Shown here: piece by piece, positions 5,320-63,754 of the stretch
Position numbering within the stretch: the stretch's first letter is position 1
Layout: each line of letters begins with the position of its first letter
Source: Camelus dromedarius
Lineage: Eukaryota
Length of the DNA stretch: 64,000 nucleotides
Assembly (NCBI RefSeq): GCF_036321535.1
Contig: NC_087436.1
Location: 80,354,001-80,418,000, forward strand
Reading direction: 5' to 3'
Program-made: the position numbers and the translations under genes
The notes under the pieces: generated by a model
The model's input: only the letters and a program-made list of their open reading frames with translations
Database searches by the model: none
Told to the model about the DNA's origin: nothing

Positions 5320-5417
5320 ATATTTAATTAATTAATTAAGTGGTGGTACTGGGGATTGAAGCCAGGACCTTGGGCATGCCAAACATGCGCTCTACCACTG
5401 AGCTATTATCCTCCCCC
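5320..5417 (-). mobile_element. tRNA-derived SINE (camelid vic-1-like)
   Basis: Minus strand has A box tagctcagtggtagagc and B-box-like gcttcaatcccc, plus an AT-rich tail; TSD acgaatgtactt / acaaatgtactt. Confidence 0.85.
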
Positions 5418-5694: not shown

Positions 5695-5932
5695 TTTTTT
5701 TATGGCTTATTGTTATTATTATTTTAATTGAAGTCTAGTCAGTGTACAATGTTGCATCAATTTCTGGTGTACAGCATAATGTTTCAGTCATCCATATACA
5801 CACATATAATCCTTTTCATATTCTTTTTCATTATAGGCTACTGTAAGATATTGACTATAGTTACCTCTGCTATACAGTAGAAACTTGTTGTTTATCTATT
5901 TTATGTGTAGTAGTTAGTACCTGCAAATCTTG
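5695..5932 (-). mobile_element. L1 3' UTR fragment (same type as 20386-21037)
   Basis: Reverse complement resembles the 3' end of the L1 at 20820-21030; T-rich tail on the left. Confidence 0.8.
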
Positions 5933-6462: not shown

Positions 6463-6600
6463 TCTTTTATCTATCTATTTATTTATTTATTTAAGGGAAG
6501 TTATTAGGTTTATTTATTTTTAATGGAGGTACTGGGGATTGAACCCAGAACCTAGTGCATGCTAGGCACGCACTCTACCACTGAGCTATACCCTCCCCCT
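6463..6600 (-). mobile_element. tRNA-derived SINE (camelid vic-1-like)
   Basis: Minus strand gggggagggtatagctcagtggtagagtgc...gggttcaatccccagtacc with a (TAAA)n tail; 16-bp TSD agatcttggtggctta / agatcttggcggttta. Confidence 0.88.
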
Positions 6601-9706: not shown

Positions 9707-9886
9707 ATGGAGATAATAATAGGTACCTACATCATAGGAACATTGGAAGGATTAAATGAGTTCATATTTATAAAATGCTTAGACAAGAACCTGAAACATA
9801 GTAAGTATTCAATAGCTGTTAGCTGCCATAATAATTATTATTAAATTTTATATTATGTAGAGATTGAAACATTCTATACATACATT
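9707..9886 (+). repeat. 180-bp direct repeat, copy 1 (MIR 3' part plus flank)
   Basis: Matches 11248-11426 with 8 substitutions and 1 indel by manual alignment. Confidence 0.95.
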
Positions 9887-11247: not shown

Positions 11248-11426
11248 ATGGAGATAATAATAGGTACCTACATCATAGGAATGTTGGGAAAATTAAATGA
11301 GTTCATACTTACAAAATGCTTAGACAAGAGCCTGAAACATAGTAAGTATTCAATAGCTGTTAGCTGCCATAATAATTATTATTAAATTTTATATTATGTA
11401 GAGATGAAACATTCTATACATACATT
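11248..11426 (+). repeat. 180-bp direct repeat, copy 2
   Basis: Matches 9707-9886. Confidence 0.95.
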
Positions 11427-16704: not shown

Positions 16705-18447
16705 CGTGCACACCTCGGAGATATTGCGGTTTTGGATCCAGGTCACCTCTCTGTAGCGAGTGTTGCCATAAAGCAGGTCACACGAATGTTCTGGTTTCCC
16801 AGTGTGTATGAAAGTTTTGTTTATGTTATACTGTAGTCTGTTAACTGTGCAATGGCATTACATCTGAAAAAAAAATGTACAGACCTTAATTTAAAAATAC
16901 TTTACAGCTAAAAAGTGCTGATCGTCATCTGAGCCTTCAGCAAGTCATAATCTTTTTACTGGTGGAGGCTCTTGCCTCCGTGTTGATGCTGCTGACTGGT
17001 CAGGGTTGTGGTTACTGAAGGTGGGGGTGGCTGTGGCAATTTCTTAAAATAGGACAGTGAAGTTTGCCACATGGATTGACTCTTCTGTAGCATGTAGTGT
17101 TGTTTGATAGCATTTTACCCACAGTAAAACTTCCTTCAGAACTGGAGTCAGTCTTCTCAAACCCTGCCACTGCTTTATCAGCTAATGTATGTCAGGTTCT
17201 AAATCCATTGTTGTCATTTCAGTAATCTTCACAGCATCTTCACCAGAGTGGAGTCCATCTCAAGAAGCCACTTCCTTTGCTCATCTATAGGTAGCAACTC
17301 CTTATCTGTGGAAGTTTTATCATGAGATTACAGAAATTCAGTCCCATCTTCAGACTCCACTTCTGATTCTAGTTCTCCTTCTGTTTCCACCACATCCGCA
17401 GTCACTTCCTGCACTGAAGTCTTGAATCCCTCAGAGTCATCCATGAGGGCTGGGATCAGCTTCTTCCAAACTCCTGCTAATGTTGTTATTTTGACCTCTT
17501 CCTGTGAATCACTAATGTTCTTAATGACATCTAGAACGGTGAATCCTTTCCAGATTTTCAATTGACTTCGCCCAGACCCATCAGAGAAGTCACTGTCTAG
17601 GGCAGCTGTAGCCTTATGAAATGTATCTCTTAAATAATAAGACTTGAAAGTGGAACTTTCTCCTTCATCTGTGGGCTGCAGAGTAGACGTGTTAGCAGGC
17701 ACGGAAACATTCCTCTCGTTGCACATCTCCATCAGGGCTCATGTTTAGAGCTCTAGATTAGGCTTTGGCATAGGGAAATGTTGTGGCTGGTCTGAGCTTC
17801 TGCCCCGACCACTAAAACCTTCTCCGTATCAGCACTAAGACTGTTGGGCTTCCTTATCATTCGTGTGTTCACTGGAGCAGCACTTGTGATTTCCTTCAAG
17901 AACTTGCCTTTGCAGTCATAACTTCACTAACTGGTCCAGGAGGCCTAGCTTTCAGCCTGTCTCAGCTTTTAACATCTTAATCATTAAGCTTAGTTATTTC
18001 CACCTTTGGATTTAAAATGAGAGACATGTGACTCTTCCCTTCATTTGAACACTTTAGAAGCCAGTGTAGGATTATTCACTGGCCTGATCCTGCGGTGTGT
18101 CAGGGAACAGGGAGACCTGAGGAGAGGGTGAGGGACGGGAGGACGTGGCTGGTCAGTGGAGCAGTCAGAGTACGCACAACACGTACCGATTAAGTTTGTT
18201 ATCTTACATGGGTGTGACAAATAGAGTAATAATGAAAATGTTTAAAATACTGTGCAAATTACCGAAATGTGGCACAGAGACACGAAGTGAACAAATGCTG
18301 TTGGAAAAATGGCCCTGATAGACTTATCTAAGGCAGAGTTGCCACAAACCTTCAATTTGTTAAAAAACAAACAAACAAAAAACAAAAAACACCCACAATA
18401 TCTGTGAAATGCAATAAAGCAAAGTGCAATAAAATGAGGTCCGCTTG
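16705..18447 (-). mobile_element. Tigger1-like (TcMar/pogo) DNA transposon, internally deleted
   Basis: Both termini resemble Tigger1 TIRs and are flanked by TA (16703-16704, 18448-18449); ORF 17328-17732 is a DDE transposase remnant (PANTSTLQPTDEG...FKSYYLR). Confidence 0.9.
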
Positions 18448-20385: not shown

Positions 20386-21037
20386 AGCAATCCCACTCCT
20401 GGGCATATATCCAGAGGGAACCCTAATTCAAAAAGACACACGCACTCCAGTAATCATAGCGGTGCTATATGCAATAGCCAAGACATGGAAACAACCTAAA
20501 TGTCCATTGAAAGATGACTGGATAAAAAAGTTGTGGTATATTTATACATATAATGGAATACTACTCTGCCACAAAAAGAATAAAATAATGCCATTTGCAG
20601 CAACATGGATGGACCTGGAGATTGTCATTCTAAGTGAAGTAAGCCAGAAAGAGAAAGAAAAATACCATATGATATCACTTAACATGTGGCATCTAAAAGA
20701 AAAAAGAAGACACTAATGAACTCATCTACAAAACAGAAACAGACTCACAGACATAGTAAACAAACTTATGGTTACTGGGGGGAGAGGAGGGTGGGAAGAG
20801 ATAAATTGGGAGTTTGAGATTTGCAGATATTAACTACTGTACCTATATAAAAACTAGATAAAAAAACAAATTTCTTCTGTATAGCACAGGGAACTATATT
20901 CAATATCTTGTAATAACCTTCATTGAAAAAGAATATGAAAACAAATATATATATGTATATATATGACTGTGACATTATGCTGTACACTAGAAATTGATAC
21001 ATTGTAACTGACTATACTTCAATTTTTAAAAAAGAAA
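20386..21037 (+). mobile_element. 5'-truncated L1 (ORF2 C-terminus plus 3' UTR)
   Basis: ORF 20462-20716 AIAKTWKQPKCP...FAATWMDLEIVILSEVSQKEKEKY is the L1 ORF2p C-terminus; G-rich 3' UTR tract and A-rich tail. Confidence 0.92.
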
Positions 21038-24419: not shown

Positions 24420-27400
24420 AGCATTTTTGTATTAACTTTCATTTTTCTTGAGCAGTCTTGTTGGGAGTTTATTTCATAATCTTTTCAAAAGATCAAATTC
24501 TGACTTGTTAACTTTCTCTGTGTTGTTTTCTGTCTGATTGATGTCCATTCTCATCTCCCATTCCTTTCTTTCTCTAGGTTCAATTTGCTGTTTCTTCTCC
24601 AGCTTCTTAAGATAAAGCTTAGATGATTGGTTTTCAGCCTTTTTTCTAATATATTCACCTAACACTATACATTTACTCTTAATTAGTGCTTTTTTTAAAA
24701 AATAATAGACTTTATTTTTTTAGAGCAGTTTTGGGTTCACAACAGAATTGAGCAGAAAATACAGAGTTCCCACATAGCCCTCCCCACCCACACATATATA
24801 CTCCCTTACCCTCATCAGTGTGGCATATTTGGTACAATCAATGAACCAGCATGGACACATTATTATCAACCAAAGTTCACAGTTTACATTAGGGTTCACT
24901 ATTGATGTTGTACATTCTAGGACTTTGACAAATGCATAATGACATGTAGCCACCACTATAATACCACACAGAATAATTTCATTGCCCTAAAAATCCCCTG
25001 TGCTCCATCTGTTCATCCCTCCCTCCCTCCCTCTCCCCAAATCTCTGGAAACCATGATCTTTTTATTGTTTCTGTAGCTGTGCCTTTTCCAGAATGTCAT
25101 TTGGTTGGAAGTGTATTGTGTAGCCTTTTCAGACTGGCTTCTTTCATTTAGTAATATCTTCTACATTTTTTCCATGTCTTTCATGGCTTGATAGTTTTTT
25201 TTTTTAAACTGCACATATATTTTTTCATTTATATATATGTACTGTTCATTGTTTCTAAGAATGTTTAGAGCTTTAGCTTTTTAAACTTACATAGTTATCA
25301 AAGGAATAAAGCCAACCACAAAATAAGAATTAACTTAAAAAGATATATACATCCTGCTATTAACAGCAACATTATTTATAATGGCCAAGATATGGAAGCA
25401 TCCTAAGTGCACGTCAACAGCTGAATAGATAATGAAGATGTATGTGTATATATGCACTAACACACACTTGCACATAAGAAAGAAGGATACTTTGCCATCT
25501 GCGGCCCTTCATTCACTTTTTTTTTTCCACTTCAAAACCCAGAGTTTTACAACTGGCATAAACATTTCCATTATATCAAAAACAACAAAATACCTAGAAA
25601 TAAACCTAACCAAGGAGGTTACCTATACTCCGAAAGCCGAAATGACACAAAGAAATGGAAAGATTTCTTGTACTCTTGAACACTATCAAAATGGCTGTAC
25701 TGCCCAAAGCAATCCACAGATCCAACACAACCCCCATCAAAATACTCGCGACATTCTTCACAGAACTAGAACAAACAATTCCAAAATTTATAAGGAGCCA
25801 CAAAATACCCCGAACAGCCAAAGCAATCTTTTGTAGGTCTTTTTTTTTTTTTTCCTCTTTCTTCTTTTTGTTCTCTTTTCTTACGGTTTGATGACTAGAG
25901 AAGTTCCTTTAACATTTGTTGTAAAGCTGGTTTGGTGGTGCTGAAATCTTTTAGTTTTTGTTTATCTGTGCAGCTTTTGATTTCTCCATCAAGTCTGGAC
26001 GAGAGCCTTGCTGGATAGAGTATTCTTGGTTGTAAATTTTCCCTTTTCATCACTTGAAGCATGTCATGCCATTCCCTTCTGGCCTGTAGAGTTTCTGCTG
26101 AAAAATCAGCTGATAACCTATGGGAGTTCCCTTGTATGTTATTTGTTGCTTGTCTCTTGCTAATTTTCATATTTTCTCCTTATCCTTAATTGCTGTCAAT
26201 TTGATGACTGTACCTTGGTGTGTTCCTCTTTGGGTTGACCCTGTGTGGTACTCTCTGCGCTTCCTGGACTTGGGGGACTGTTTCCTTTCCCAAGTTGGGG
26301 ACGTTTTTGGTGATTATCCCTCCAAAAATGTTCTCAGGTCCTCTCTCTCTCTTCTCTTTCTGGGACCTCTATAATGCAAATGTTAGAGTGCTTCATGTTG
26401 TCCCAGAGTTCTCTTAAATTATCTTCATTTCTTTTCAATCTTTTTTCTTTTTTCTGTTTTGAAGTAGTGATTTCCCTAATCTGTCTTCTAGCTCATTGAT
26501 CTGTTCTTCGGCCTTATTTAGTCTATTCTTGGTTCCTTCTAGTGTATTTGTTATTCATTTCAGTAATTTTGTTCTTCAACTCTGTTTGGGTATTCTTTAT
26601 AATTTCCAACTCTTTGCTAAAAACTTTGCTCTGTGCATCTATACTCCTCTTGAGTTCTCTGAACATCTTCACCATCATTACTTTAAACTCTTTCTCAGAA
26701 ATTGCTTATCTCCTCTTCATTTATTTCTTTTTCTGGGATTTTATCTTGTGCCTTGGCCTGGGAGATATTCCTTTGCTGCCTCATGTTGTCTATCTTTCTA
26801 TGTGTTTGTGGGTTCCTTCCACAGGCTTTGGGATTGTTGTTTTCTTATTTCTAGTATCTGTCCCTGGTGGATGAGGCTGGAGTAGAGGCTTTGTGCAGGG
26901 TTCCTGGCAGGAGGAGCTGGTGCCTGCCCACTGCTGGGTGAGGCTAGGTCTTGGTGCTAATGATCCAATCAAGATGTCAGCCTCCAGGAAAGCTCATGTA
27001 GATGAACACTCCCAGAATGTCCACCACCAGCTTTTATGCCCCCTGAGTGAGCTGCAGCCATCCCCCATGTCCCCAGAAGACCCTCCAAATCCAGCAGGCA
27101 GGCCTGGCCCAGGTTCCTATGAGATCACTGTCTCTGCCCTTGGACCTAGTGCACATGAGTTTCCACGTACGCTTCTCAAGCGAATGGAGTCTCCCGTGGG
27201 GCTCCTGGTGCCAAGCCCCGCTGGCCAGATGTTCTAGGGTCTCCTCTTCCGAATGCTGGAACCTGAGCTCAGGAGCCTGAGGTGGGGCTTAGAGTTCTCA
27301 CTCCTGTGGGAGGGCCTCTGTGACTTAAATCTTCAGCTCGTGGGTCGCCCACCCAGGGGTTATGGGGCCAATTATATCACGATCATGCCCCTCCTCCCGT

Positions 27401-28380
27401 CCTGCTGTGGTTCCCTCTTTGTTTCCAGTTGCAGGAGATTTTTTTGCTAGTTTCCAGTCTTTTTTTTTTTTTTTTCAGTGGTTGTTTAGTATTCAGTTGT
27501 GGATTTGTTGTAGTCATGAGGAGAGGAGAGCTCATGGTCCCACCACTCCGCCCTCTTGACAGGAAATAAGTAGCACTTTTTAAGTACTCTTAAGTACTTT
27601 CATCCCACGGGTTGTATTTGTATTTTCACTATCCAGTTACAAATATTTTCTGATTTCCAGTATTCTGTCTTCTTTCTTTGACGTGGGATTATTTAGAAGT
27701 GTATTGATTAGTTTCCAAACAAATGGAGATTTTGTCATTCTCCTTCCTTTCCTGATTTTTGCTTTAATCCTACTATGGTCAGAAAACATACTATTTCAGT
27801 ATTTAATATTTGTTGAGATTTGCTTTGTGCCCCAAGCATATTGTCTGCTCAGATAAACGTTCCAGGTGCACAGGAAACAAGTATGCGTTGTGAAGTTCCA
27901 GGATTAGTGTTGCATGTCAACTGGGTGAAGTTGAGCTGAATTTTCTGTACTGATTTTTTTGACGTGTTTTTCCCCTTTGCTTGTTCTATCAGTTATGAAG
28001 AGAGCTTCATCAGAATTTCCCAGTTTTTGCTTTATTTATGTTGAGGTTGTGTTAGGTGTACACACATTTAGGACTCTCGTGTCTCCCCGTTGAATCACTT
28101 CTAATGTCATTATGTAATGTCCATCTTTATATACTACTTGTAAAGCCTACTTTGTTGAATAGAAGACTAGCTGCATCTGCCTTCTTTTGGTTAGTGTTTG
28201 CAGAGTATTTCTTTGTCCTTTTACTTTTTTGCATTCCTTTTTCCTTCTATTTAAAGTGTGTTTCTCTTTTCTAACAAGCATATAGCTGGATTGTTTTTGT
28301 AACCCAGTTGACAATCTTTGTCTTTTTAATTGGGGTATTTAATTCACTTGCATGTGATTTATTAACTGATACATTTCAGT
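24420..28380 (-). mobile_element. Old antisense L1 interrupted by an L1MC/MD-type 3' fragment (~24700-25194) and the HAL1-like element
   Basis: ORF 24474-24665 (LKKLEKKQQIEPR...INQTENN) is L1 ORF2-like; the old L1 resumes after ~27585. Confidence 0.7.
25195..27565 (-). mobile_element. ORF1-only L1 derivative (HAL1-like), ~2.4 kb
   Basis: L1-type 5' end (ttcctgtcaagagggcggag); decayed ORF1 from ATG 26784 (MRQQRNISQAKAQDKIPEKE) to TAG 25895 (RLSADFSAETLQARREW...LYPARLS...KELL); no sense-strand ORF2; inverted ORF2 fragments; distinctive tail; A11. Confidence 0.75.
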
Positions 28381-34329: not shown

Positions 34330-37300
34330 TAGTTTTGAGAGTTTCTGAACCATAATCTCGTGCCACCATTATTACCCCCAGTTAGAGAACATTTCCCTCA
34401 CTCCAAAAGTTCCCTGGTACCCATGTGCAGTTAATCCCCACTCCAACCCCCAGCCTTAGGCAGCCACTGACCTGCTGTCGCTGTAAATTTGCCTTTTCTG
34501 GACATCTCCTATGAATGGAATCGTGCAATGCATAGTGTTTTGTGTCTGGTATAATATGTTTGCTTGTATCAGCTTTGTTCCTTTTTATGAAGAACACACT
34601 TTGCTGACCCATTTACCAGTTGATTGGCATCGGAGTTATTTCCAATTTATGATTCTTAAGAAAAATGTTGCTGTGAGTATTTGTGGACATGTGTTTGTGT
34701 GGCATGTCTCCATCTCTCTCAGATTTCTAGGGTGGAATTGCTGGGTCGTATGGTAAGTTTATGTTTAACTTTTAAAGGAATGGCTAAACTGTCCAAAGTG
34801 GCTGTACATCCTTATCTTCCTACCCGCAGTGTATGAGGGTTCCCTACATCCTCACCAAAACCCAGTACTATCTTTTTAAAGAGAACCATTCTAGCTGGTG
34901 TGTGTCGGTATTTCAAGGTGGTTTTAGTTTGCATTTCCCTAGTGGCTAATGGCACTGAGCATCTTTACATGTGCTTATTTGCCATTTGTATATCTTCTTT
35001 GATGAAATGTCTATTCATTTATTTCCCCATTTTTACATGTGATGTTTCTTCTTATTCAGCTGTAAGAGATTGTTACAGATCCTAGATACAAATCCCTTAT
35101 CAGATATGTGACTTACAAATATTTTCTCCAAGGCTGTTCCTTTTTCCCTTCATTCTTAAGACAATTTTTTAGAGCACTTTAAGGTTCATAGGAAAATTGA
35201 GGGGATGGTACAGAGATTCCCAATATACCCTCTGCTCTGCCCCCAAACACAGCCTCCTTGGCTGTCAATATCCCCAGTGAGAGTGGTATGTTTGTTACAA
35301 CTGAAGAACTTACATTGACAACATGTCGTAATCACCCAAGGTATATAGTTTACATTATGGCTCATTCTTGGTGATGTATTCTTTGGATTTGGACAAATGT
35401 ATGACATGTATCCTTCATTACGGTGTCATATAGAGTATTTTCACTGCCCTAAAAGTCCCCTGTGCTTCCCCTATTCATTCTTCCCTGACACCCCCAAACT
35501 CTGATCATTTTACTGTCTCCATAGTTTTGCCTTTTCCAGAATGTCATATAGTTAGAGTCATATGATAGGCAGCATTTCCACATTGGCTTCTTTCACTTAG
35601 TGATATGCATTTAAGATTCTTCCATGTCTTTTCATGGCTTCATAGCTCATTTCTTCTTAATGCCGAATGATATTCCATTGGCTGTACCATAGTTATTTAC
35701 CCATTCACCTACTGAAGGAATCTTGCTTGCTTTCAAGTTTTGGCAAATATGAATAAAGCTGCTGTAAACATCAGTGTGAAGTTTTTTTTTTTTTTCCCCA
35801 GATGGACCTAATTTTTCAACTCCGTTGGGTAAATAGCGAGAATTGTGGTTGCTGGATCACATGGTAAAAGAAGCCACCAACCTGCCTTCCAAAGTTGCTG
35901 TTTCATTCTGTAGTCTTACTAGTAGTGAATGAGGCTTCCTGTTGTTCCATATTCTTGCCAGCACTTGGGTTTTGTTGATGTTCTGGATTTTGGTCATTTT
36001 ATAAGTATGTAACGTTTCACCTTGAATTTCCCTGATGGCAAGATGTGGAGCACCTCTTCATATGCTTCTTTGTTATCTGTGTATCTTCTTTGGTGAGGTG
36101 TCTGTCAATGTCTTTGGCCCATTTTAAAATCAGGTTGTTCATTTTCATACTGTTGAGTTTAAAGAGTTCTTTGTGTATTTTGGATAACAGTCCTTTATCA
36201 CGTCTCTTTTGCAAATATTTTCTACCAGTCTGTGGCTTGTCTTATTCTCTTGACATTATCTTTTGCAGGACAAAAGTTTTTAATTTTAATGAAGTTCATC
36301 TTACCAGTTCTTGCTTTCATGGATTGTGCTTTTTGATGTTGTAACCATGATGTAGCTACTATGATACAGTAACTATAATATAACGACTTGGCTATTGTAA
36401 ATCACTGCCATACCCAAGGTCATTTAGTTTTCCTATGTTAAATTCTACTTTTATACTTTGCATTTTACATTTAGCTGATTTTAGTGGTAAAGCTTTGAGT
36501 TTCTCACCATTGAGTTTGGTGTTAGCTGTAAGTTCTTTGTACAGTCTTTAACAAGTTGAAGTAGTTTCCCTCTATTCCTAGTTTATATCGAGTTTTTATC
36601 ATGAATGGGTGTTGGATTTTGTCAAATGCTTTTTTTTCTTTGCATTTGATATGATCATGTGATTTTTCTTTTTTAGTCCAATTGATGTGATGGATTACAT
36701 TAACTGATTTTCAAATGTTGAACCAGCCTTGAACACTTGGGATAAATCCCAACTGTTATGGTGTATAATCCTTTTCATATATAAATTTGATTTGCTAACA
36801 TGTTGTTCAGGATTTGGCCCCTATGTTCATAAGATATTGGTCTGTAGTTTTTTCATAATGTCTTTGTCTGGTGTTGGTATTAGGGTAATGCTGGCCTCAT
36901 AAAATGAGTTAGGAAGTATCACCTTTGCATCTATCCTCTGAAAGAGATTGTAGAGAATTGGTACAATTTCTTCCTGTTTGGGAGAATTCAGTAGTGAACC
37001 ATCTGGGCCTGGTGTCTTCTTTTTTGGAAGGTTATTAATTATTGATTCAATTTCTTTGATGTAGGCCTTTTCAGACAATTTATTTCTTCTTGTGTGAGAT
37101 TTGGCAAATACGACTTTGAAGGAATTGTCCATTTCATCTAGGTTATCACATTTGTGGGCATAGAATTGTTCAAGGTGTTCCTTTATTATTCTTTTCATTT
37201 GCATAATATCTGCAGTGATGGCCTCTATTTCTTCTTTGATATCAGTAATCTGTGCCCTCTCTCTCACTTTCTCCCTTTCCCTCTTTCTTCTTCTTTTTTA

Positions 37301-38110
37301 GGGTAGCTTGGCTGTTGACATTTTCAAAGGGCCAGCTTTTGGTTTTACTGATTTTTTTTTTTTTTGGTATTTATTTCTTGTTTTCAATTTCACTGATATC
37401 TGCTCCAATTCTTATTATTTCTTTTCTTCTGCTTACTTTAGATTTAATTTGCTCTTCTTTTTTCTGGTTTCCTGAAGTGAAAACTTGGGTTATTGATTTT
37501 TGATCTTTGTTCTCTTCTAATATATGCATTCAGCAGTATAAATCTCCCTCTAAGTGGTACTTTCACTTACAAATTTTGATATGTTTCATTTACATTTAGC
37601 TCAAGACATGCTAAAATTTCTCTTGAGATTTCTTCTTTGGCTGATGTGTTATTTAGAAGTGTGGTGTTTAACTTCCACATGTTTGGGGATTTTCCTGTTA
37701 CTGATTTCTAGTTTAATTCCCTTAATGTGGTCTGAGAGCATTCATATGATTTATATTCTTTTAAATTTATTAAGATGTGTTCTATGGCCCAGAATGTGGT
37801 CTACGTTGAATTCCAAGGGAGCTTGAGAAGAATTTGTCTTTTGCTGTTGTTAGGTGTCTACAGATGTCAATTTTATCCAGTTGACTCGTGGTGCTGTTGA
37901 GTTCAGCTACATCTTACTGAATTTCTGCCTGCTGCATCTGTCCATTTCTGGTAGTGGGGTGTTGAGGTCTCGAACTATGATAGTGTATCATCTTCTTCTC
38001 CTTAAAGTTCTATCAGTTGTGACTCACATAGTTTGACTCTCTGTTGTTAGGTGCATCACTTGATCATTTATTTTCTTAAATTTTCTTTTGAAGTTTGACA
38101 CCTTTTAATT
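34330..38110 (-). mobile_element. Intergenic block of nested antisense L1 fragments (L1M-type 3' UTRs and ORF2)
   Basis: ORF 36827-37267 (NLDEMD...NNLPKKKTPGPDG...LPNSFYEASITLIP) and ORF 36017-36214 are ORF2p remnants. Confidence 0.9.
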
Positions 38111-51874: not shown

Positions 51875-52072
51875 TTCTGGCAGAAGAGCTGACCGCAGTT
51901 CCTGCAATGGTGCCGCCTTTCTGTGAGGGAAAACCGCACCGAGCAGCCCGAACAGCTGTCCCCTCCTTCATCCTTCACCCAGTGGTCGGCAGCGGAGCGG
52001 CCGGGCTGGTCACTCACGGACCAGCTGAAGACTCGGCCTCGGCTGTCGCCCACGAGGATCCTGCTGTGATCC
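51875..52072 (-). CDS. WDFY3: WDFY3 exon (last WD repeat plus FYVE N-terminal half)
   Basis: cctgcag| acceptor; 198 nt; DHSRILVGDSRGRVFSWSV...WVKD...CSGC...RRHHCRNCG; FYVE WxxD and R(R/K)HHCR motifs; donor |gtaaga. Confidence 0.97.
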
Positions 52073-52464
52073 CTGCAGGAGACAGGACGCAGAGTCACCG
52101 CGGGGAAGGCCTCGGCACCGCCTCGGCTGGAGAGCCTGCTGTGACGCAGGCTGCCCGCAGGCCAGGGCGCTGCGGTGGGGGCAAAGGGGCAAGAGCAGAA
52201 CTGAGCCCGGTTTACTCTTCCGTCTCCCCTCTCCTTGGATCAAACCTTGCTGGACCTTCGAAGAACACAGAAGGCAGAGCTTTTTGTTTTTTAAATTCGG
52301 AACTGGAATCCACACACTGCCAGGCTGCTGCTTCTGATCGTCTGTTGGAGCCACGTGTGACGATGCGGGTGAAACCTGTGCTCCCCAGAGATTGCCTGGA
52401 GGGTGGGGCCCGGGCTGGGCAAGGAGCCAGTGGGAAGAGTGGTGGGAAGAGGTCTGACACTTAC

Positions 52465-52576
52465 TTGGAGACGCCCAGGGCGGTGATTTCCGCTGGGTGC
52501 GCGTTGTCCTTCCGGTCAAAGGCAGTGTGCATCGTCAGCTTACTCCTGAACACCAGCTGCCGTTCCCACCGGTACC
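52465..52576 (-). CDS. WDFY3: WDFY3 exon
   Basis: ctccag| acceptor; 112 nt; (G)YRWERQLVFRSKLTMHTAFDRKDNAHPAEITALGVS(K); donor |gtaagt. Confidence 0.96.
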
Positions 52577-53139
52577 CTGGAGAGGAAGAGTGCGGGGAGT
52601 GACCTACTAGAGCGAAGGGAAACAACATTTGTGGGTGCAGCCCAACCTGGTGCCCTCAATGGCTGCGGTGCCCCCAACGCACAGTCTGGCAGCCTTTCTG
52701 GTGCCTCAGTTGAAGGCACAGTCTAGCCTGACGCTGGCCACGGGCCAGGTCAGAGATCGTCCCCTTCAAAGAGACACACACAGAGAAGGGGAACTCCTCA
52801 GGACAAGATACAACTTCTCCACCTGCTAGTTACCTGTGACTACATTTACTTATCTGTGATCTATAACTTGTCTATTTTCAGAGGTTTTCATGATTTGTGA
52901 ACGAATGAAGTCTTTGGTTTGAGGTGTTTTTCTTTAAAAAAACAAAAAAACCCAAAAAAACACTCAACATATTGCAAACACCATTGCAGGGCAGAATCTC
53001 TTAAGGGCCTCCAGGTCCACTGCGCACAAGCAGCAGCTTGAGGCCCTCTCTGTGGGTGGCCCCCACAGCCCCTGCCTCAGTCCACCAACCCTCACGCCGC
53101 CCACAAGGAGCGAGAAGCAGACCCCGGACTTCAAGTTAC

Positions 53140-53463
53140 CGGGCTTCAATCTGCTGTAGTTCCGCACTTCAATGGGGCTGGGGTGGGGGTGGGTAAGGGG
53201 GGCCTGCAGGTGGGCTCTGGTCTGGCCCTCGGAATAGTTCACAAAGATGAAGCCGTCCTTCTCATCGAGGCTGAGCTGGTCGGACCAGCGCCGGGAGTCG
53301 TCGGAGCCACTGTCGTTGTACAAGGTGGCCGTGGCTCGGCAGGAGGCCGCCCGGGGCCTGTGGCTGGTGCTGCTGGGCTGGCTGGGCGTGTCCCTGGGGT
53401 CCTGGCTGATGCTCTGCTCCTCGCCTTCAGAGTCGCTGCTGTCCTCGTCCTGGGCTTCCTGCC
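53140..53463 (-). CDS. WDFY3: WDFY3 exon (acidic linker with LIR motif)
   Basis: cccag| acceptor; 324 nt; (G)QEAQDEDSSDSEGEEQS...DEKDGFIFVNYSEG...NYSRLKP(G); donor |gtaact. Confidence 0.96.
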
Positions 53464-54129
53464 CTGGGTAGTATTGGGAGAATTAGGAAACACACACACA
53501 TTACAGTTAGAGCCAGCTTTGTCCCATTGGTATTTTTCCTCTACTAGTTAAGACACAACAGACTTAGTATTTTAAGCTTAGTATAGTAAGAGAAAATAAA
53601 TTGTCAGAATTTTCAGCTAGGTACTTTTAGCTAAACGGTAGAATTTCTGAGTTCAGAAAATGCGTTGGCCAAAATGCTCAGCTTGGCATTCATTCTTTCA
53701 TAGTCTGGCCAAAACCTGCCTCTGTGAATTTTTCACTACCTACCTGCCTCCCATTCCCACCGCGGTTCAGCTGGATGCCGCGGACTCTGCTCTCCCCGCA
53801 GCCCTGCTCCTCCTTACAGCTGACTCTGCACACGCGGGCTGGCCCTGCCTAGACCTGTCTTCCCAGTCTCTGTGTCTTCCAATGTTGCCTGTCTTCCAAG
53901 GTATAGCATAAATGCTTCTGTCTCTAAAATCTTACCTCATTCCTGCAAAAGGAAGTAACCATCCCTCTGGACTCCCTCACATATTTGAAATTCTCACCCC
54001 AAACTATTACTTTTGGACATTCTTTCTATAAGGCAGTGAACAGCTGGAAAGGAGTCCCAAGCACGGTGTCTTCCATAGAGCAGTCAACAGAAATGACAAC
54101 AACATAGATGAATGAACTATTGTTGAAAG

Positions 54130-54535
54130 TTTTAATTTTGTTTTTTGAGGGGGGAATAAAAGTTTATTATACTCAGAGGTCTCAAGACAGTCACTGCGGG
54201 CCACAGGGCATGGGGGTCACCTGGGAGAGAGTGCCAAGGGAGGGGACTCAAGCATGCAGGGGAGAAACAGAAGGACCCCTGGGCAAGTGCTTTTACTGGG
54301 AGTCAGGGTGGAGCACAACAAGAAAAGGTGCGAGGGGGTTTCACCGGCGCATCTGAATGGCACCGGGTCCCAGTCAGGAGGGCAGGAAGGAGAGCCAGTG
54401 GCAGGGGCCCACCTTCTCGCACCTGGTCGCACGGTTCAAGCCTGTCTACAGCCTGGCTACTGGTGAGTCATTCCTCCCTGCCCCAATCTGTGAGCTCGCC
54501 AGGCCCTGCCCTGCAAAGGGACTTATTACCAGGTG
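54130..54535 (-). mobile_element. Poly(A)-tailed LTR-like (U3-R) retrocopy with TSD
   Basis: Minus strand ends gagtatAATAAActtttattcccccctc-aaaaaacaaaattaaaa; flanked by tgttgaaag (54121-54129, 54536-54544). Confidence 0.6.
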
Positions 54536-56153
54536 TGTTGAAAGCTGTGATTTAGAATTTTGTTTTTCTTCCTCATTCTATTGTTATTGTGCATTTCTTC
54601 ATCTCAAAGCCCTGCAATAAAGTCTACTAGAGGGAATATTTATGAGAAATAAATATATGTAATTGGAAAAAAGAGCATGCACATGCATTTAAGTACCAGC
54701 CCACTACACCTTTTTTTTTTAGCAAGACTGATACATAATTTGCCTCCTTGCTACTCGCTAACATTAGTAGACTAGTTGACTAATTTCAGTGAATTTTTTT
54801 CACCTAATGGTTTATGATCATTAATTTTATAGTCTTCAAATAAGCTTCAAATAAAACGGCTTTGATTTCCAGTGAACCACCCGCTTGTCCCTGTCCCTTT
54901 CAGCAGGCCACTGCCCGCAAGTCCCACCACCTTGTCACCGTCCCAGGTCAACCCTCCCGTGGGCTGCTCTCTCCCTCTGCCACTTCTGCCAAACTCTGAC
55001 CACAGTATGAATACGGGAGGAGGAAGAGGACATACATGTCCCTCCTCCCTGGACCTGACTTCGGTCTCTCTTATTCATCCCTGTCCCCTGTAGTTCACTC
55101 GAAAGCTCTGTTAAAGGAGGTACAAGTGGCCCACCTCTCGCTGGACTGCGTAACTCAGCATCCGACACACGTGGCTACTAGCTCCCAAATACCTACTGAA
55201 CAGAACTGAATTTTTAGGTCCCCCAACACCCAGACGACTTTCTCAGCAGGGCTGCATTTGACTAGGTAGACATTTACGTGCATTAAGGTAGTACAAGCAT
55301 TAAAATGCCCAGTCCGTCGGTTCTGGCAAAGACAGTAAAAACCACTTTTGGCTTCCTAGGACAGGTGGTTTATGCCTTTCTGATAATACACCTTTTCCCT
55401 TAGTAACTCCCTCACATCATCAAGCTTACGCTGAATCCTCAGGGCACAAACATTAACCACGAAGAGACAACCGAAAGGTTAAACTTAAAACCCTGGTCCT
55501 TTCTGTGAAGTGTCTTGTACCAAGTGTTCTAAATCGATGGAGGATGACTTCTTTCAGTAACTCAAAGCGGATCTTAGCCTGACTTTATGGCATTGCTTCC
55601 AATCATTCTGCACAAAAATAATCTATCTCCATATTTCACTGGAAAATTTTAAAGTGCTTCACATACAGCTGATAACAGATCACTTCTGTTTGAATGAATG
55701 CCCTTCCTGAGCAGGCCCAGGGCGTGGACTCTGGTTTGCCTCTGTGAAGAGTTTACCAGCCTAATGCCCCTGTGTCCCTCACACTGAGCTGTCTAAGTCA
55801 CGGGTGGGACAGACGTGGGTCTGAGGTGTGGCCGTCTATCTAACACGGTGCCCTCCAGATCTACTTTTATTTTTCTGAACGGAAAGCCCAAGCGTCTGGT
55901 ACTCCAGGGAGCTCATAACCATATTTATCATGGGATGCGGAAGCTGACCACAGGACACCACCACGCTGGGCGTTGCCTGGTGAACCAGAGGACTTGGCGT
56001 GCCTGCCCGGCTCCTTCAACACCAGGCAGGGCTCCTGCTTCTAACAGCAACGCCTAGCCTCAGCCTCTTGCTTGTGTTGTTTGATGTAAGTGTGTTCGTA
56101 ATGACTTAAAAAAAAGAAAATTATGGAATTACTTTTTAGAAAGTATTAAATAC

Positions 56154-56250
56154 CTATTTGGGCTTCTGGACAGTCTTCTTGCATTTCCAGGACTTCAACA
56201 GGCTCAGGAGCTGGTGTTTCAGGAACTTGCAAAAATTCCATTCTCCAAAA
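56154..56250 (-). CDS. WDFY3: WDFY3 exon
   Basis: aattcag| acceptor; 97 nt; FWRMEFLQVPETPAPEPVEVLEMQEDCPEAQI(G); donor |gtattt. Confidence 0.95.
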
Positions 56251-56730
56251 CTGAATTCAAGTGAGTATGGAAATAAAAACCAGTTAAACAGATTACAAGA
56301 ACAATTTATATGTTACTGGATGAAAATGGGATCTCAGGATTAAACAGATAATTTAATTTCTGTTATTTGTATATAGTTAGATTTCTCTCTATCTTGAAAA
56401 CTGGCAGGGACTGCCTCCAAATAAACAGTTCCTCCCAAGCTGTGTTCCATGAGATGTTACTGGGTGTTTCACGGTGGAGGGGAAAGGACTGGGGCCAAAT
56501 GCACTCGAAAATCATGGTTCAACTAAGCACACTTCTTTGTTTCCTACAAAAACCCCTGGGAGCCTCACACGTGCTGATATAGACTCCAGATCCCCAAGAA
56601 GGCACGCAGGGAGCAGGGCCCCGGGGGTATCTTGGCTGAGGGGCGCTTCGCCATGCCTGGCTGGTGGAGTAATCTGGGATGCTGCTCTGCAGGCAGCCGG
56701 CTCCGGGGTGGGCCTGTCCTCTGAGATGCA

Positions 56731-56783
56731 GGGTGTGGCATGGGTGTGGCATGGGTGTGGCATGGGTGTGGCACGGGTGTGGC
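56731..56783. repeat. 11-bp minisatellite (GGGTGTGGCAT), about 5 copies
   Basis: Direct reading; units start at 56731, 56742, 56753, 56764, 56775. Confidence 0.97.
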
Positions 56784-56973
56784 CGATGGCCTCATTTTGC
56801 TCAGCAAGTGACTGATTACAAGGCAGAAACCAGCTGCTCTCTGCTTTTATAGAGTGCATTTAAAGAAGAAAGACACACAGAAAAGTCTCCCAAATGCCAG
56901 AACAGACTATAGAGGTAAACACTTTATGGATTCCATCTTAGGTAGAGGCCCAATGCATACAAAACTAAGAAAG

Positions 56974-57007
56974 GATAAACTGTTCAGATGATAAACTGTT
57001 CAGATGA
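56974..57007. repeat. 16-bp perfect tandem duplication
   Basis: gataaactgttcagat twice. Confidence 0.95.
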
Positions 57008-57423
57008 AATCACCCAGGATTCTAGGCAGGGAATGAACGGATGACCTGAGGCCCTGGGAGCATCTTCTAGCTCTGGGATTCTCTGCAGAGAAGAGACAGC
57101 CCCTGTTTCCCCTAAGAAGCCACTTGACAGGATGAAAAGCCAGTACTTAAGCAGACGACATTTTTAACAATCCCAGTGTGACGTGGGAATCATGGTTAAG
57201 TGATTCTGTGTCAAGCTGTCAAGTGGTTAGTAGCACTAACAGGTACACTTAATGGGAAGAGAAGAGGCCAGTCACTGATGACCCCCATGTCTGGTAACAC
57301 AATGCCCAAGCTTGGTCTGAATCAGAGTGAGAGTTCGCTAAACAGCACCTCGCTCTCCAGGTGCCCTCCAGGTGCCCCCCACCGTGGACAGCTTCACAAG
57401 TCCCAGGTGAGCAGCCGACTTAC

Positions 57424-57606
57424 CCGGACCACGCCGTCCGAGTGTCCTGTGACTATGACGTTCTGCGTGTCCCACTCGTTCATCTCCGACACGCAGCAGC
57501 ACACGATCTGCTGGCTCCTACCTGTGAATGTGTTCACACTCACGACAGGGTTCCCGTTGATGCTCCACACGTGGATGTACGTGCCAGCGCAGGACACAAT
57601 GTCCCC
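57424..57606 (-). CDS. WDFY3: WDFY3 exon (WD40)
   Basis: ctctcag| acceptor; 183 nt; GDIVSCAGTYIHVWSINGNP...VTGHSDGVVR; donor |gtaagt. Confidence 0.97.
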
Positions 57607-60500
57607 CTGAGAGGAGAAAAGAAGAACTTCACTCACGCCAGGTTACACTCTAGTTTCAGAAGCAAACTGAACCCTTGGCCTAGCTCTCAGAAACCCTCTT
57701 GGTCCTTTGACCGGTGACTGGGTGATTTCTGACGCAGCATGGAATTCAGTGCTGGTTGACTTAATGAATACCCTGAACAGAGGCCTCTTTAGGAATTCGA
57801 GGTCGCGTGGATACTGCAGCCAAGGTGCCAGCAAATGGAGAGAGGCAGGAGCTCCTTGGCGCTCCCAGCTCACGCCCATGCACACTGCAGAGTCCGCTTT
57901 ATTCCAGATCAAAGCGGTCTGTAACCCGAGGAGGTGATGAACTACTTCTTTTTCCTCCCACTGTTTACAAAACCTATTTATACCTTTTATTTAGAGGTAC
58001 TTAATTTTATAAAATTTTATAAAATGAGCCCGATCATCAAAACCACAGGGTAGAAATCTTTCAGTCCATATACAGCTGTAACTCTCTTCAATAAATGAAG
58101 AGATGAAATCTTGATAACACTGCAATATCCTATTTAAAAATTTGTATTCACAGTAAGGGTCGGGGAATGAGGGGAAAAAAAAAAGAAAACTGGTATGTAG
58201 GTCATTTCTTGGCAAAATGAACACACTCTAAGCCTCCCTGAACTGATAATACAGGTTTTCATGAGTTCCGAAGATGGAAGAAAAACCAAGCTTTTCCTTC
58301 AAATTCTGCCCGGCTGGGCTCTACCCAGCCTGGTGAGAATACAATCCACTAGCACTAAAGGAATTAAGGTGCTTCCTGAAGCATGTACTGCGTGTTACTG
58401 TGGTGGACGCCCGGCACATTCCATCCAACCTTACAGCAATCTTGTGAGCTTAGCTGCTCTGAGCCTCTAAAGAGAGCATGAAAGTGAGATGCAAAAAGCT
58501 TAAATAACTTGCCTGATGTCACCGAGTAAAGACCTGAACCCAGCTCTCTCTGGCCCCAAAGCTTATACAACATCCCAAGCTGCCTGTCTCATCCCTGAGA
58601 CAGCCCGGCTGTCACGATGCAAGGTGCTGACTTCAGAAATGACCTGGTGAATTCCAGTACAGCCAGGAGGCACATGAGAACCTACAGAAACTGGAATGCG
58701 GTCACCAAAAGCAGAGGGAAGCCAGACACTGAACAGCAGCGCCAACACAAGAGAGAAGGGAACGGGGAGGCCGGGGTGGCTGCCAAGACGGCCTGGGGCT
58801 TTTCCAGACCACTGTCCGTGCCGGTCTTGCTATCTGTTCTCTCCCTCGGCTCTTATTCTACCAAGGAGGCAAGAACCAAACCAAATCCCAAACAAAAATA
58901 ATGCTTAGCAAACCACTGCCGTGCCTACCTCTGTACCAGCCGCTGCACCGCCTCTGATGGCAAGTGTCAGCAGCTGAGTTTTAATGAACGGCCCCAGTCT
59001 CTGCAGGAGACAGGAGGCAGCGCCACACGAGGCTTTCTTCACTTACCCCAGGGCACCTCAGCTAGAGGGCGCTGGAGCAAACCCCGTGGTTATGAGGGCT
59101 GAGAGTAAGACGGAGAATTAAAGGGCAGCTGAAAGGTAGCTGAGGCCCAAAATGCAAAGTGAAGTAAAGCAGCCTTGACAGTGGTGGCAGAAACATAGCA
59201 GGAATGGAAATCTTTCCACAAGTCACTAAGAGATTACAAAAGCATCTTAAAAGGGAAGAATCAAGTACGTCTGTAGTGTCTGCAGCAACAACTGCAATCC
59301 AATGGGTGTGTACTGGCTCAAATAACAGCTAACTATAAATAAAATTCTCAGGGTTTAAGTTAACAACAAACCCAAAACAAAGTGCTTGAAATAGCGCGAC
59401 TAAGCCTTGGACTCATAGCCACGCAGCGGGGATCACAGCGCTTCTGTTGCACGGATATTTCCACACACCTCTTAGGTGTGTTGGCACGCCCAACCCAAGG
59501 TGCTGTTCGAAACACATTTTAAGCCTTTCAAATACAACAAAAGAAGAATCTGACTCTTTTAGCCCTCACGCACCCCACTCATTCCCAACTCTGATGACTC
59601 TTACTATGACGAGAGGATCAAAGTGCCGTTAACTAGAACTGAGTAACTTCCCTTTTCCTTTTTCTCTGAGTGACCACAAGGTATCTGACTAAAAGCGTAA
59701 TAGTCAGCATCCCTCAAGGGGACAGCTGCCCATGGGTGACGGTGTGACGCGGTTAGAACTACCCTGTGTCATGCAGGACGATCCCGGCAGGGCTGAGGGT
59801 GACGGTGGGATCGGGTGTACAGAGCTAAGAAATGAGGAGGAGCAGGGTTATGGCGGATTTTGGTTTGCGTATGTGGGCTTCACCTACATATGAATCTGAT
59901 CATTTGTCCCTTGGACACCGAGACCTCAGTCTTTCCACGTCTACCCTTAGCTCCCCATTTGCCAACACACCTTAGCAGTGACTGCCCTCCCCTCCGCCAC
60001 CACAGGGGGGCCTGGTCTGCATGGGGGGGGGGCTCCTATTCTGATTCATTGTATTTATTTGTATTTTTGAGAAGAGATACTGTTCTCTGATAACTTTAGG
60101 GTCTGTTTTGAAAAGTTTTACAATAAGTATTGTCTTGTTTGGGTATCCAAATGTTACTCTTTTCACTTCATATAATAAATACTTTGAATATATTTCATAA
60201 AAACGTCAACACAATTTTAACAAGTCCCACAAATCTGCTTTTTAAAAAGCATATTCTAGAATGTTCTATTTTGACCCAAATACTTTTAAGTATGCTGCCA
60301 TGATTGGATTCTAAGACAAAACTGCTCTCTGGGTTACAAAGTTTAATATTCATTTCCTTTTGCAAACAACATATAAGTCAAGTGGCTTTTAAAAATGAGC
60401 GCCCATCAACTTAGAAAACACATAGAGCCATTTTTTGTTTCTACTGGCCAGAGCTACTTTTTTTCTGACACATAAACCAAGTAGGCAATTTACTACTTAC

Positions 60501-60680
60501 TGTTAATTCATTGATACAAAGAGCAGAAACGGGAGCCCGGTGGCCTCGGAGCTGGGTTAGGAACGACAGTTTGTTCAGGTCCCAAATGATGCAGGTTCGG
60601 TCACGGGACCCACTGACAATTATGTGATAGGCTAGTGATGCTGTGGCACAGGTGACAGTGTCCGTGTGGCCAAGTAAGGC
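60501..60680 (-). CDS. WDFY3: WDFY3 exon (WD40)
   Basis: ctcctag| acceptor; 180 nt; ALLGHTDTVTCATASLAYHIIVSGSRDRTCIIWDLNK...LCINELT, a GH...WD repeat; donor |gtaagt. Confidence 0.97.
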
Positions 60681-61739
60681 CTAGGAGGAGAAGAGAAAAA
60701 CCAGGCTGGTCACAGCGGAGCGGTCCTGGAGGGGCTCCGGGAGACGCGGACCCTAAGGGAAGGGCAGCGCCCGTGCTGGGAGCGAGGGCCCTGCGCAGTA
60801 TATCTGCAGAGTCCTCACCCTCCTCCTGTGTCCCCGCCTCCTCCCATGGGGGGAGGAGGGGAGCCTGGAAGACCCGGGAGGCTCTAATCTCACTCTCTAC
60901 CACCTCTTTCCTGGACTCGGGCCAGGATCTTAGAAGGAAGGGGGAGCGGCAACTGAAACCCGGCTTGGGTTTCTTCAGACTATTTCTATGTGGAGATGTA
61001 TCAATCAGGGCCCCCAAAATACAGGATTTAAACCCGGAATCTATTTTTTTATGCCATCAACTCCTGTTAAGTCCATTCTGAGGAACAATTGGACAGATTT
61101 TTAAAAAATGTACAAAGTGTGAGAAATGCACTGTTGCAGTACGTGGTCCAAGAAAGATGAAGGGAGATGTGGGCCTGATGTGTGTGATGAGTCCGTTACT
61201 GAATCGGACACACCTGGACATGTGTCTGACAGGGACCCCTGCTTCAAACTAGCATGAGAACTTTTCTCTTTTGCTGGAATACAAAGAGAAACAGGATCCA
61301 GGGAAATGGCAATGTGGGAAAACAAGTATTTTTGAAGAAAAAGGTTCAGATTACTGTTAGGAATTCCTGAGTATTTACTATTTAATTAATGGGTTGTCAG
61401 CCTAAAATTCTGGTCATGCAGACATCCTTACTATAGATTTAGCAAACCCCAGAAGGCTCTTTTACGTAAGGAGTACTTTCTACCGAGGGGCACCTGTAGG
61501 CACACTAGCTTCAAAGCCCACTTTCTAAGGTGAAAAGACTGTCCGGACCAGCAAACTGCGCTGCCAACCTCGTGTCTGTTCACGTCGAGACCGTCTCTTA
61601 TGGGGCTCCCTTTCAGACCCAGCAACCCAAGAAGTTTCTAGACTACACAGGTGGACACTGGTGTAAGTATGAGGCGTTCAGTTCTTCCCACAGATATTTA
61701 AAACACCACTGTTTGCTTGAGCCGGGCTTTAAACACAGA

Positions 61740-61925
61740 ACTGAATTTATATCGTGGCTTTATCACTGTGACATGGGGATGTGTCTTAACCTCTAAGCCA
61801 TGATTTTTTCAGGTGTAAATAGGGATGATGAGTACCCTGTAGAATTAACAGGACTGGAGTTTTACATTTTTTAACCCTCTAGCACTGTGACCTGAACATG
61901 CCAGGTGCTCAATAAGTAATAATGA
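61740..61925 (+). mobile_element. MIR fragment followed by an AT-rich (TA)n tract
   Basis: ctgtgacatgggg...cttaacctctaagcc...tgtaaatagggatgatg...gtgctcaataagt. Confidence 0.7.
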
Positions 61926-62665
61926 TAAAGAAATAATTTTATATATATATATAAATATTTTATATATATATATATATAAAAAAATGATAAATAATAAACG
62001 GCAGATATCATTGTTACACTACTTTTCAAATATGCATCATAAAAAAAAAACTAGATGTATACTCCATTAAACCTCTATGGTAAATCCACTTACAAATCAA
62101 ATATTAAAAGATGATGGCTTAATTATAAAAGGATTCTTACTTTGATTAAAAATTTGTAATAGCAGATAACAAGTGATCAGAAATACTTGTTAATAAAATC
62201 ACCAGTGGTTCTACTGAATACATTCATGAGTTTGTCATGTTCTTAAGAATACGATAAAGGAAACAGAAAAACTAAAGAACTTTTGATTTAATGCTCTAGA
62301 TGAATGAAAGTAACTCAGAAAGGAAATGGGTATGAACCAAAACCAAACATAATTTGGTTTGCAAAAATTTAACCTACATATAACTTCTGAAAAATGTTTA
62401 ATTACTTGGAGCTATTATAAAAAATATGACCTAAAGACAGCTTGCTTCAGATTTAAAAAAAGGACCAGTTTAGATCATTTTCAGAAATAGTATCTTCTGA
62501 TTTCATTCCTTTATTTTAGACCCATTTCCAGCAAAAGAACATACATTTATTTGGTTTTGTCTATTATGTCTGAAACACCTTGGAATTATGGGCGTTTCCT
62601 GGTTTCTCTGGAATGCGGGCAACTGAGGTGCGTATGTTATGTCCATCTTCTGCACGTTCTGTTAC

Positions 62666-62824
62666 CTGTTTGAGAGTGAGCGTCTTAGCCTTTTCCTTCG
62701 AGGTGCCCATCTCCCACACACACACAACTGTGCTTGTTCCGCCCGTGATGACCAGCTTGGGGTTGGGGCAGATTGCACAGAGAATCTGGCCCCACTCAGA
62801 CAAACATTCATAAACAGTCACTGC
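62666..62824 (-). CDS. WDFY3: WDFY3 exon (WD40)
   Basis: cttacag| acceptor; 159 nt; AVTVYECLSEWGQILCAICPNPKLVITGGTSTVVCVWEMGTSKEKAKTLTLKQ; donor |gtaaca. Confidence 0.96.
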
Positions 62825-63754
62825 CTGTAAGACAGAACAGATGTGAGACACACATGCCATCACCAAGCACTACAAGCTTCTGAAACACAGCGAGCATACT
62901 GAGTGGAGGAGAACCTCTATGTAGGTCCCTCACAGGCACATGTATGTGCTGGGCTGGCTTCAACTTAGCTACAGGCCCACCGAAGCTCTACTCTGAACTA
63001 TTTATTCCCTACAGCCTCCTAACTACAGTTTCTGTTAAAAATATAAAAAAAAGGATTTTGCTCATAATGGGGGTCTCCAGTTTCTCCGGTCCTGGAAAAT
63101 GATGTTCAGAGTGTGTGATGCTATGTCAGATGCAGGGGGTAATCTGGTAACAGGGTGTGTTTGTCGTAGCCAGTCAGAATGTGACAGGAAAGCACGAGGG
63201 CAGCTGATCAGTGAGAACGTGACTGAATAGAAGTGTGTTACACACTCGCACAGACCAGGCCCCTGGTGCGCTCAGGAGGGGACGTCAGAGGGCAAGCCCT
63301 GGGCACCAGAGGATCACTACATACTGCCTCTGCAAGAGATACTGATGGGGCTCAGAAAGGTAGCTGCTGCTTCTTGGGGGAAGGGGTGACAGGTTTGCTG
63401 ACAGCCACTTGAGAGCACTGAAATGGCAAGCGGGCCAGATGATGACTCAAACGGAGGCTCCTCCCGTTGGCAGAAATGCTGACTACCTGGCTGGTAGCCC
63501 TCTTGGAGGGCTTCTCTGAACAGGAGGGAAACTGCTAGCCCCTCACACACAACTTTTCAAGAGAGGCTTTTCTGCAGGAAACATGACTTGTCCACTACCT
63601 TATCCTGACGCGACGCAGTGAAGCTCTCCCTCCCTCTGGGCTGTGGAGGAACAGCTGAGAAGCCCTTTGCTTAAGCTCTCCCCATCCCCATTAAGCAGGA
63701 AATCCAGACCAAGGAGGGGCAAGATTAAATGAGTGAGCAAGAAAGAATGCAAAC

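Follow-up and report, generated by a model that had tools for sequence, protein, structure and literature searches.

The window, a 64,000-nt stretch of the Camelus dromedarius genome, carries on its plus strand a cytidylyltransferase gene, which we take to be CDS1: all three scanned exons match the Pfam family CTP_transf_1, and motif matches presumably mark further CDS1-like exons at ~300, 12221, 14101, 16505, 21354, 23477 and 30163. A gene with a FYVE domain, presumably WDFY3, reaches into the window with its 3′ end on the minus strand, and SINE copies at 5323–5417 and 6509–6599 are, we assume, of camelid type. In the last intron of the CDS1-like gene, between its final two exons and antisense to it, lies a HAL1-like element. 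HAL1s encode ORF1p alone and have several origins, according to the available text of PMC5753468, PMC13756887 and PMC8535693.

Anatomy of the insertion

The element interrupts an older L1. Both of its flanks belong to one ORF2, and alignment to L1 locus L003 shows that ORF2 to be cut at a single point by the whole 2.87 kb. Sense ORF2 has been lost from the element itself, and an assortment of shorter, mostly L1-related sequences follows its ORF1 (Table 1).

Table 1. Features of the element, its flanks and a related insertion (positions in the window)
Feature	Positions	Strand	Remarks
Older L1 ORF2, upstream half	27601–28374	−	L003 nt 1274–2122, E 2e-32; ORF2 aa 22–302
Left TSD	27567–27581	−	abuts L1 5′ start
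L1 5′ UTR, internal promoter type, CpG-depleted	26785–27566	−	~782 nt; match to L001
Dead L1 ORF1	25895–26784	−	PF17489, PF02994, PF17490; 6 frameshifts and 1 stop
Shortened inter-ORF spacer	25830–25894	−	ORF1 stop joined to far end of long L1 spacer
ORF2 piece 1, ~aa 765–862	25555–25830	+ (antisense to element)	internally deleted; start residue estimated
Linker without assignment, ~50 nt	25506–25554	.	between ORF2 pieces 1 and 2
ORF2 piece 2, ~aa 1187–1245	25331–25505	+ (antisense to element)	alignment to 20424–20601
AT-rich segment common to the 860 insertion	25208–25296	−	compared with 859–946
Old L1M 3′ end, probably the element's own tail	24695–25207	−	A11 at start; AATAAA 24716–24711 and short T/A run at end
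Right TSD	24680–24694	−	pairs with 27567–27581
Older L1 ORF2, downstream half	24442–24608	−	L003 nt 2231–2407, E 3e-6; colinear with upstream half
Separate 5′-truncated insertion with TSD	848–1057 (insert 860–1045)	+	own AATAAA

The first-pass annotation, made from the sequence of the window, had described an L1-type 5′ UTR of ~780 bp and a decayed ORF1 on the minus strand, and both descriptions hold. The corresponding region of L1 locus L001 aligns to the 5′ UTR with 67% identity across 397 columns, and L004 gives shorter matches. Its CpG observed/expected ratio is 0.20, and by eye it is of the pig L1A type. Pfam trimer, RBD and dsRBD domains were matched in three of the six ORF1 pieces scanned (best E 1.3e-24), and the six frameshifts, read from an alignment to five of the eight L1 loci fetched, come in addition to one in-frame stop. 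At the DNA level ORF1 is 74–76% identical to all five aligned loci, among them the pig-type loci L001 and L002. In the ORF1 tree the copy forms a long separate branch (0.21), apart from the pig-type and the other loci. Three of the features by which a HAL1 is recognised are seen here: an L1-derived 5′ UTR, an ORF1 with L1 ORF1p domains, and no coding ORF2.

Downstream of ORF1, the A-rich spacer that had been put at ~60 nt measures ~65 nt. Positions 25897–25848 match L002 at 1122–1171 (78%), which lies ~300 nt beyond the ORF1 stop of that locus; those ~300 nt are absent from the element. At ~25830 the sequence switches to antisense ORF2. The first piece corresponds at 25676–25834 to residues 810–862 of human ORF2p (E 4e-11) and reaches, with gaps, to ~25555 against the ORF2-derived proteins P0019, P0091 and P0120. 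The direct PDB match of the second piece is weak (aa 1193–1215, E 1.1); against an L1 in the window at 20424–20601 it scores 85, where the shuffled maximum is 38, and since the frame of that L1 spans ORF2p aa 1173–1271, the piece falls at ~aa 1187–1245. The linker between the two has no match in the window, in the eight L1 loci, or in the best 150 of 362 proteins. Along the minus strand the order runs from aa 862 down to ~765 and then from 1245 down to 1187, so that two antisense, non-colinear and internally deleted pieces are present, as first described, but the second ends before the C-terminus that had been ascribed to it. Together they amount to only ~450 nt between ORF1 and the 3′ end. 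A union of piece 2 and the L1M tail as a single twin-primed element was considered and rejected, as piece 2 scores 60 against the L1M copy at 35 kb and the younger L1 in the window fits it better and further (85 vs 60).

What these pieces do, if anything, had been the subject of a speculation that they pair with the helper L1 mRNA. The element has no match in Rfam, and the antisense region folds no better than shuffled sequences (z −1.1). A 135-aa plus-strand frame has no PDB match; the best 150 of its 362 protein matches are L1 ORF2-region frames, of which 149 matched the element, and seven extend outside piece 1, by weak extension only. Because the pieces are deleted, are 71–73% identical to other L1s, match nothing in Rfam and show no unusual fold, they are most simply explained as passengers, debris taken into a 3′ UTR, and the pairing proposal finds no support. 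An elaborate form of it holds that the pieces were selected: the HAL1 RNA would pair with helper L1 mRNA near the regions coding for the RT thumb and the C-terminus, sit beside nascent ORF2p and so defeat cis-preference, or else would feed antisense piRNAs directed against its own helper. We consider this very unlikely; nothing speaks for a function of the pieces. Were they found conserved and matched to a contemporary helper L1, they would represent a new way of hijacking ORF2p; the present evidence gives no sign of this.

The 3′ end and the target-site duplication

The first-pass annotation had placed the element at 25195–27565 (2.37 kb) and taken A11 for its poly(A) end. The sequence beyond A11 is an old L1M 3′ end, which we take to be L1MC-like. 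It aligns to a copy in the window at 35165–35660 with 69% identity over 516 columns, and the alignments at the 25207 junction and at the 3′ end both score above shuffles. Upstream of that second copy is ordinary L1, and an A-rich stretch at the homologous place aligns with A11. A11 is accordingly better read as an internal A-rich stretch of L1M than as a poly(A) end: no convincing TSD is found there, no AATAAA lies ahead of it, and the L1M 3′ end runs on for ~500 nt to an AATAAA.

At the outer end the AATAAA is present and the poly(A) is down to a short run. Here the flanking repeats AAAAAGTGCTACTTA / AAAAAGCACTAATTA (27581–27567 / 24694–24680) are identical at 12 of 15 positions, and two of the three mismatches form a TG/CA pair, the trace that decay of a single CpG would leave. 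Among the window's 419 A-run sites, 8 reach their score of 7.5, the true site included (~p 0.02); the score at the A11 end, 2.5, is equalled by 153 of 419. The left repeat abuts the L1 start and therefore leaves no room for a second TSD. Beside the outer TSD are ~20 nt of duplicated target sequence, without explanation. That the copy is near full length stands from the earlier description, but it is probably 2.87 kb long, with a captured 3′ end of an old L1M as its terminus. The whole composite was probably mobilised as a single RNA that relied on ORF2p supplied in trans.

The outer repeats can also be set in another register (27585–27596 / 24674–24685, 11 of 12 identical), which leaves ~17 nt between the TSD and the L1 start. 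This is where a shorter element would gain its footing, one of 2.37 kb that ends at A11 and was inserted at the extreme 5′ margin of an L1M 3′ fragment of separate and earlier origin. The ~17 nt left over open on a TT/AAAA-type endonuclease site and are similar to L1M sequence at A11, and an inner pair matches at 8 of 11 positions. We find it decidedly unlikely: the inner pair is equalled at the 153 of 419 control sites given above, the insertion would have to fall within 17 nt of the fragment edge, and the poly(A) signal is missing before A11.

The AT-rich segment between the antisense pieces and the L1M end occurs a second time in the window. Against 859–946, 78 of 87 aligned positions are identical, with a 2-nt gap (BLAST E 3e-25). 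The insertion at 860 is flanked by a TSD of its own (848–859 / 1046–1057, 11/12), and its homology to the main copy sets in with its first base, which is what 5′ truncation would produce, and breaks off after 88 nt. Past the common segment it continues for ~100 nt more, with an AATAAA at 1013–1018, and this part is absent from the main copy. The same tail had been reported 24 kb away from the element; what is there is a separate TSD-flanked insertion, but one with only 88–89 nt in common and a different 3′ end. From it we learn that the AT-rich segment was inserted at another place as well; on any recurrence of the ORF1/antisense junctions it is silent. The end of the 860 insertion presumably resembles an L1M terminus, judging from the pig consensus by eye; one L1M terminal motif has no match in the window.

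The AT-rich sequence was mobile and probably abundant. A second copy within 64 kb would imply a source of at least ~1,600 copies in 2 Gb (5% level, even scatter), a post hoc figure, as the window was picked for the tail. Such abundance would suit an autonomous L1 subfamily with this sequence as its normal 3′ UTR, in which case the element would be a multiply inverted and deleted copy of that L1, produced by twin priming and template switching or by later inversions; a sense 5′ part, an inverted middle and a sense 3′ part would be the outcome of two adjacent inversions. Yet the 860-type tail does not rise above shuffles when compared with the two lineage-type L1 3′ ends in the window (5726–5930 and 20817–21024: scores 64 and 77, shuffled maxima 74 and 87), and the pig L1 consensus file lacks two 13-nt motifs of the tail. 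The L1M tail within the TSDs would also be left unexplained, and known switching variants, in the available text of bioRxiv 10.1101/2024.08.27.596794, retain a 5′ inversion. We therefore give this origin very little credence.

Twin-primed and switching L1s, as far as the available text of PMC2912911 and bioRxiv 10.1101/2024.08.27.596794 describes them, resemble the element in holding both orientations within one TSD-flanked insertion. A twin-primed L1 has its 5′ part in the orientation opposite to that of its poly(A) end, whereas here the minus strand carries 5′ UTR, ORF1 and 3′ end alike, and the pieces, unlike those of a twin-primed L1 in these descriptions, derive from L1s of different type. 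The earlier remark that classic twin priming does not fit was thus well founded.

A non-autonomous family or a single build

With a probability of roughly 0.6, we interpret 27566–24695 as a single copy, decayed and near full length, of a non-autonomous retrotransposon of the HAL1-like, ORF1-only kind. The source element would have lost ORF2 through deletion or rearrangement and gained a 3′ UTR from L1 debris next to it: two scraps of antisense ORF2, an AT-rich end and, as the source of the poly(A) signal, the 3′ end of an old L1M. The RNA, transcribed from the L1 5′ UTR promoter and coated with the element's own ORF1p, would have entered the genome through target-primed reverse transcription, for which full L1s provided ORF2p in trans. 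In cell assays, ORF1-only RNAs with an L1 5′ UTR are mobilised in trans by ORF2p (available text of bioRxiv 10.1101/2024.05.03.592410), and by analogy the element at 27566–24695 is likely to have used this route. The 860 insertion could then derive, by truncation, from a sister or ancestral form whose end came earlier. Against this interpretation stand the lack of a second copy of the junctions, the TSD at ~p 0.02 with its two registers, and the lack of a long poly(A) at the outer end; a further point is that the 860 copy ends differently and stops before the antisense pieces.

The earlier note had proposed a non-autonomous family in place of a one-off rearrangement. An ORF1-only, HAL1-like nature is the best reading here too, but no second copy of the junctions was found to bear out the family. 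A search with ORF1 returned eight L1 loci from metagenome contigs and none from viral or prokaryote contigs. None of the eight has the junctions: six run into sense ORF2 and two end inside the spacer. The junctions are likewise missing from the best 150 of 362 protein matches to the plus-strand frame, ORF1 does not run into antisense ORF2 in any of 120 listed of 1067 ORF1 relatives, and none of nine candidates carries the minus-strand junction frame. Scans for the tail motif found nothing in metagenome or viral contigs. Two candidates were rejected: P0183, as a junction carrier, is a sense ORF2–ORF1 fusion, and a single tail motif match in prokaryote genomes is ascribed to chance, its flanks not aligning. 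These blanks weigh little, because the collections are mostly microbial with little or no camelid DNA; the named L1 matches in them come from pig, peccary, whales and a bat.

An account without a family has one L1 rearranged once in L1-rich DNA, or built from nested insertions and deletions, and then copied once or a few times. The empty junction searches agree with it, as does the 860 copy, which has only the AT-rich segment in common and another end, and complex L1 inversions can arise singly (available text of bioRxiv 10.1101/2024.08.27.596794). We nevertheless hold it to be unlikely. One TSD pair, with no inner TSD, encloses at least five joints, so the joints were most likely already present in the RNA and at least one source copy existed elsewhere. 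Moreover, piece 1 has several deletions of 5–25 nt and ORF1 has indels of 1–4 nt, which suggests that the 3′ part decayed while ORF1 was kept open. We infer that the copy is most likely a member of a lineage-specific HAL1-like family.

The best reading of how the element works is that it does so like HAL1, a kind already known in mammals. The resemblance to HAL1 (Bao and Jurka 2010, as cited in the available text of PMC5753468 and PMC13756887) lies in the L1 5′ UTR and ORF1, the missing ORF2 and the dependence on ORF2p, and according to the same two sources HAL1s arose independently in several mammalian lineages. Unlike in that description, the 3′ part here consists of two scraps of antisense ORF2, then the AT-rich segment and lastly the 3′ end of an old L1M. 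In the pig element HAL1_SSc / L1A6 (3016 bp, 944 copies), ORF1 gives way to unrelated sequence and then to a short L1 end, as given in the available text of PMC6501411. It is similar in its length of ~3 kb, in its type of 5′ UTR and in the non-coding patchwork after ORF1, the consensus having been compared by eye. The pig element retains the near end of the long spacer, the copy here the far end; after the spacer the pig consensus continues into AT-rich sequence that is unrelated and closes with a short L1 end of lineage type. By eye, the available pig consensus has different sequence after ORF1, with no antisense ORF2 and no matching tail, and an origin independent of HAL1_SSc is likely. No camelid HAL1 and no HAL1 with antisense ORF2 appears in the portions of the literature available to us, apart from one 73-bp alpaca match to a bat HAL1 (PMC6726744, available text); the supplements of PMC8605555 may contain such a consensus. 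The element may already be catalogued in Repbase or Dfam.

If a family exists, it would represent one more independent origin of a half-L1, with a chimeric 3′ end. Annotation would split that end into four or five L1 fragments, which would be miscounted and misdated. Its insertions would be usable as phylogenetic markers.

Age of the copy

Among sites invariant in its relatives, the copy has private ORF1 changes at 24 of 189, 22 of 205 and 25 of 145 first, second and third codon positions. Third positions are changed at 17%, compared with 12% at first and second positions, a difference that is not significant in this one copy (Fisher p 0.11). At ~11–13% across codon positions, the private changes mostly reflect neutral decay. 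Sequencing runs are only compatible with a locus older than the lineages sampled and are silent on junctions and copy number: 20 of 23 listed rows, under four organism labels and from ten studies, contain 0.44–0.52 of the sampled words. Two substitution rates were applied to the private changes. The slower, a mammalian rate, gives an age of ~50–55 million years. The other, 2.5e-8 per generation with a 5-year generation (available text of PMC8605555), gives ~22–25 million years. The copy has thus been dead for roughly 20–55 million years.

Joints and target sequence of the main copy

In the main copy, a decayed and probably HAL1-like retrotransposon on the minus strand, a long L1 inter-ORF spacer has lost about 300 nt, and its distal part is attached directly to the ORF1 stop codon (window 25895-25848, compared with 1122-1171 of L002, an L1 locus fetched from metagenome contigs); the joint has 3 nt of microhomology. 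This fusion of stop codon and spacer may be a marker of the element's parent L1 lineage. Ahead of the L1 start, at window 27567-27600, the target sequence occurs in three imperfect repeats of 10-14 nt each; the duplicated sequence exceeds what a single TSD accounts for by about 20 nt.

The insertion at 860 and rearranged L1s elsewhere

Within the separate insertion at 860, the stretch absent from the main copy (945-1000) appears by eye to be built of short tandem duplications, and is closed by what we take, likewise by eye, to be an L1-like terminal motif. Outside the window, the post-ORF1 sequence of the fetched locus L001 (1934-2204) and of the protein P0201 resembles, by eye, the spacer of the pig half-L1 consensus HAL1_SSc. 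L001, whose contig stops within the spacer, may itself be a HAL1 copy. In P0183, a predicted protein, a sense ORF2 stretch is joined to the ORF1 C-terminus, making another rearranged L1.

Host genes and other repeats

The window also holds two tail-to-tail genes, presumably CDS1-like (+) and WDFY3-like (-), and the element's ORF2 scraps lie in sense orientation within host pre-mRNA.

Other features of the window
Feature	Position	Strand	Basis or detail
Direct repeat, 180 nt	9707-9886 and 11248-11426		95% identity; copies 1541 nt apart
DDE_1 transposase remnant	17331-17738	minus	
Old L1, several pieces	34700-38000	minus	
Gene	300-30300	plus	Pfam matches
Gene	52000-63000	minus	Pfam matches

The intronic direct repeat, which presumably starts with a MIR-like piece, reflects local duplication or conversion. 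We assume the transposase remnant to be Tigger-like. In the old L1, a complete L1M 3' end (35165-35660) is followed immediately by another ORF2 C-terminal piece.
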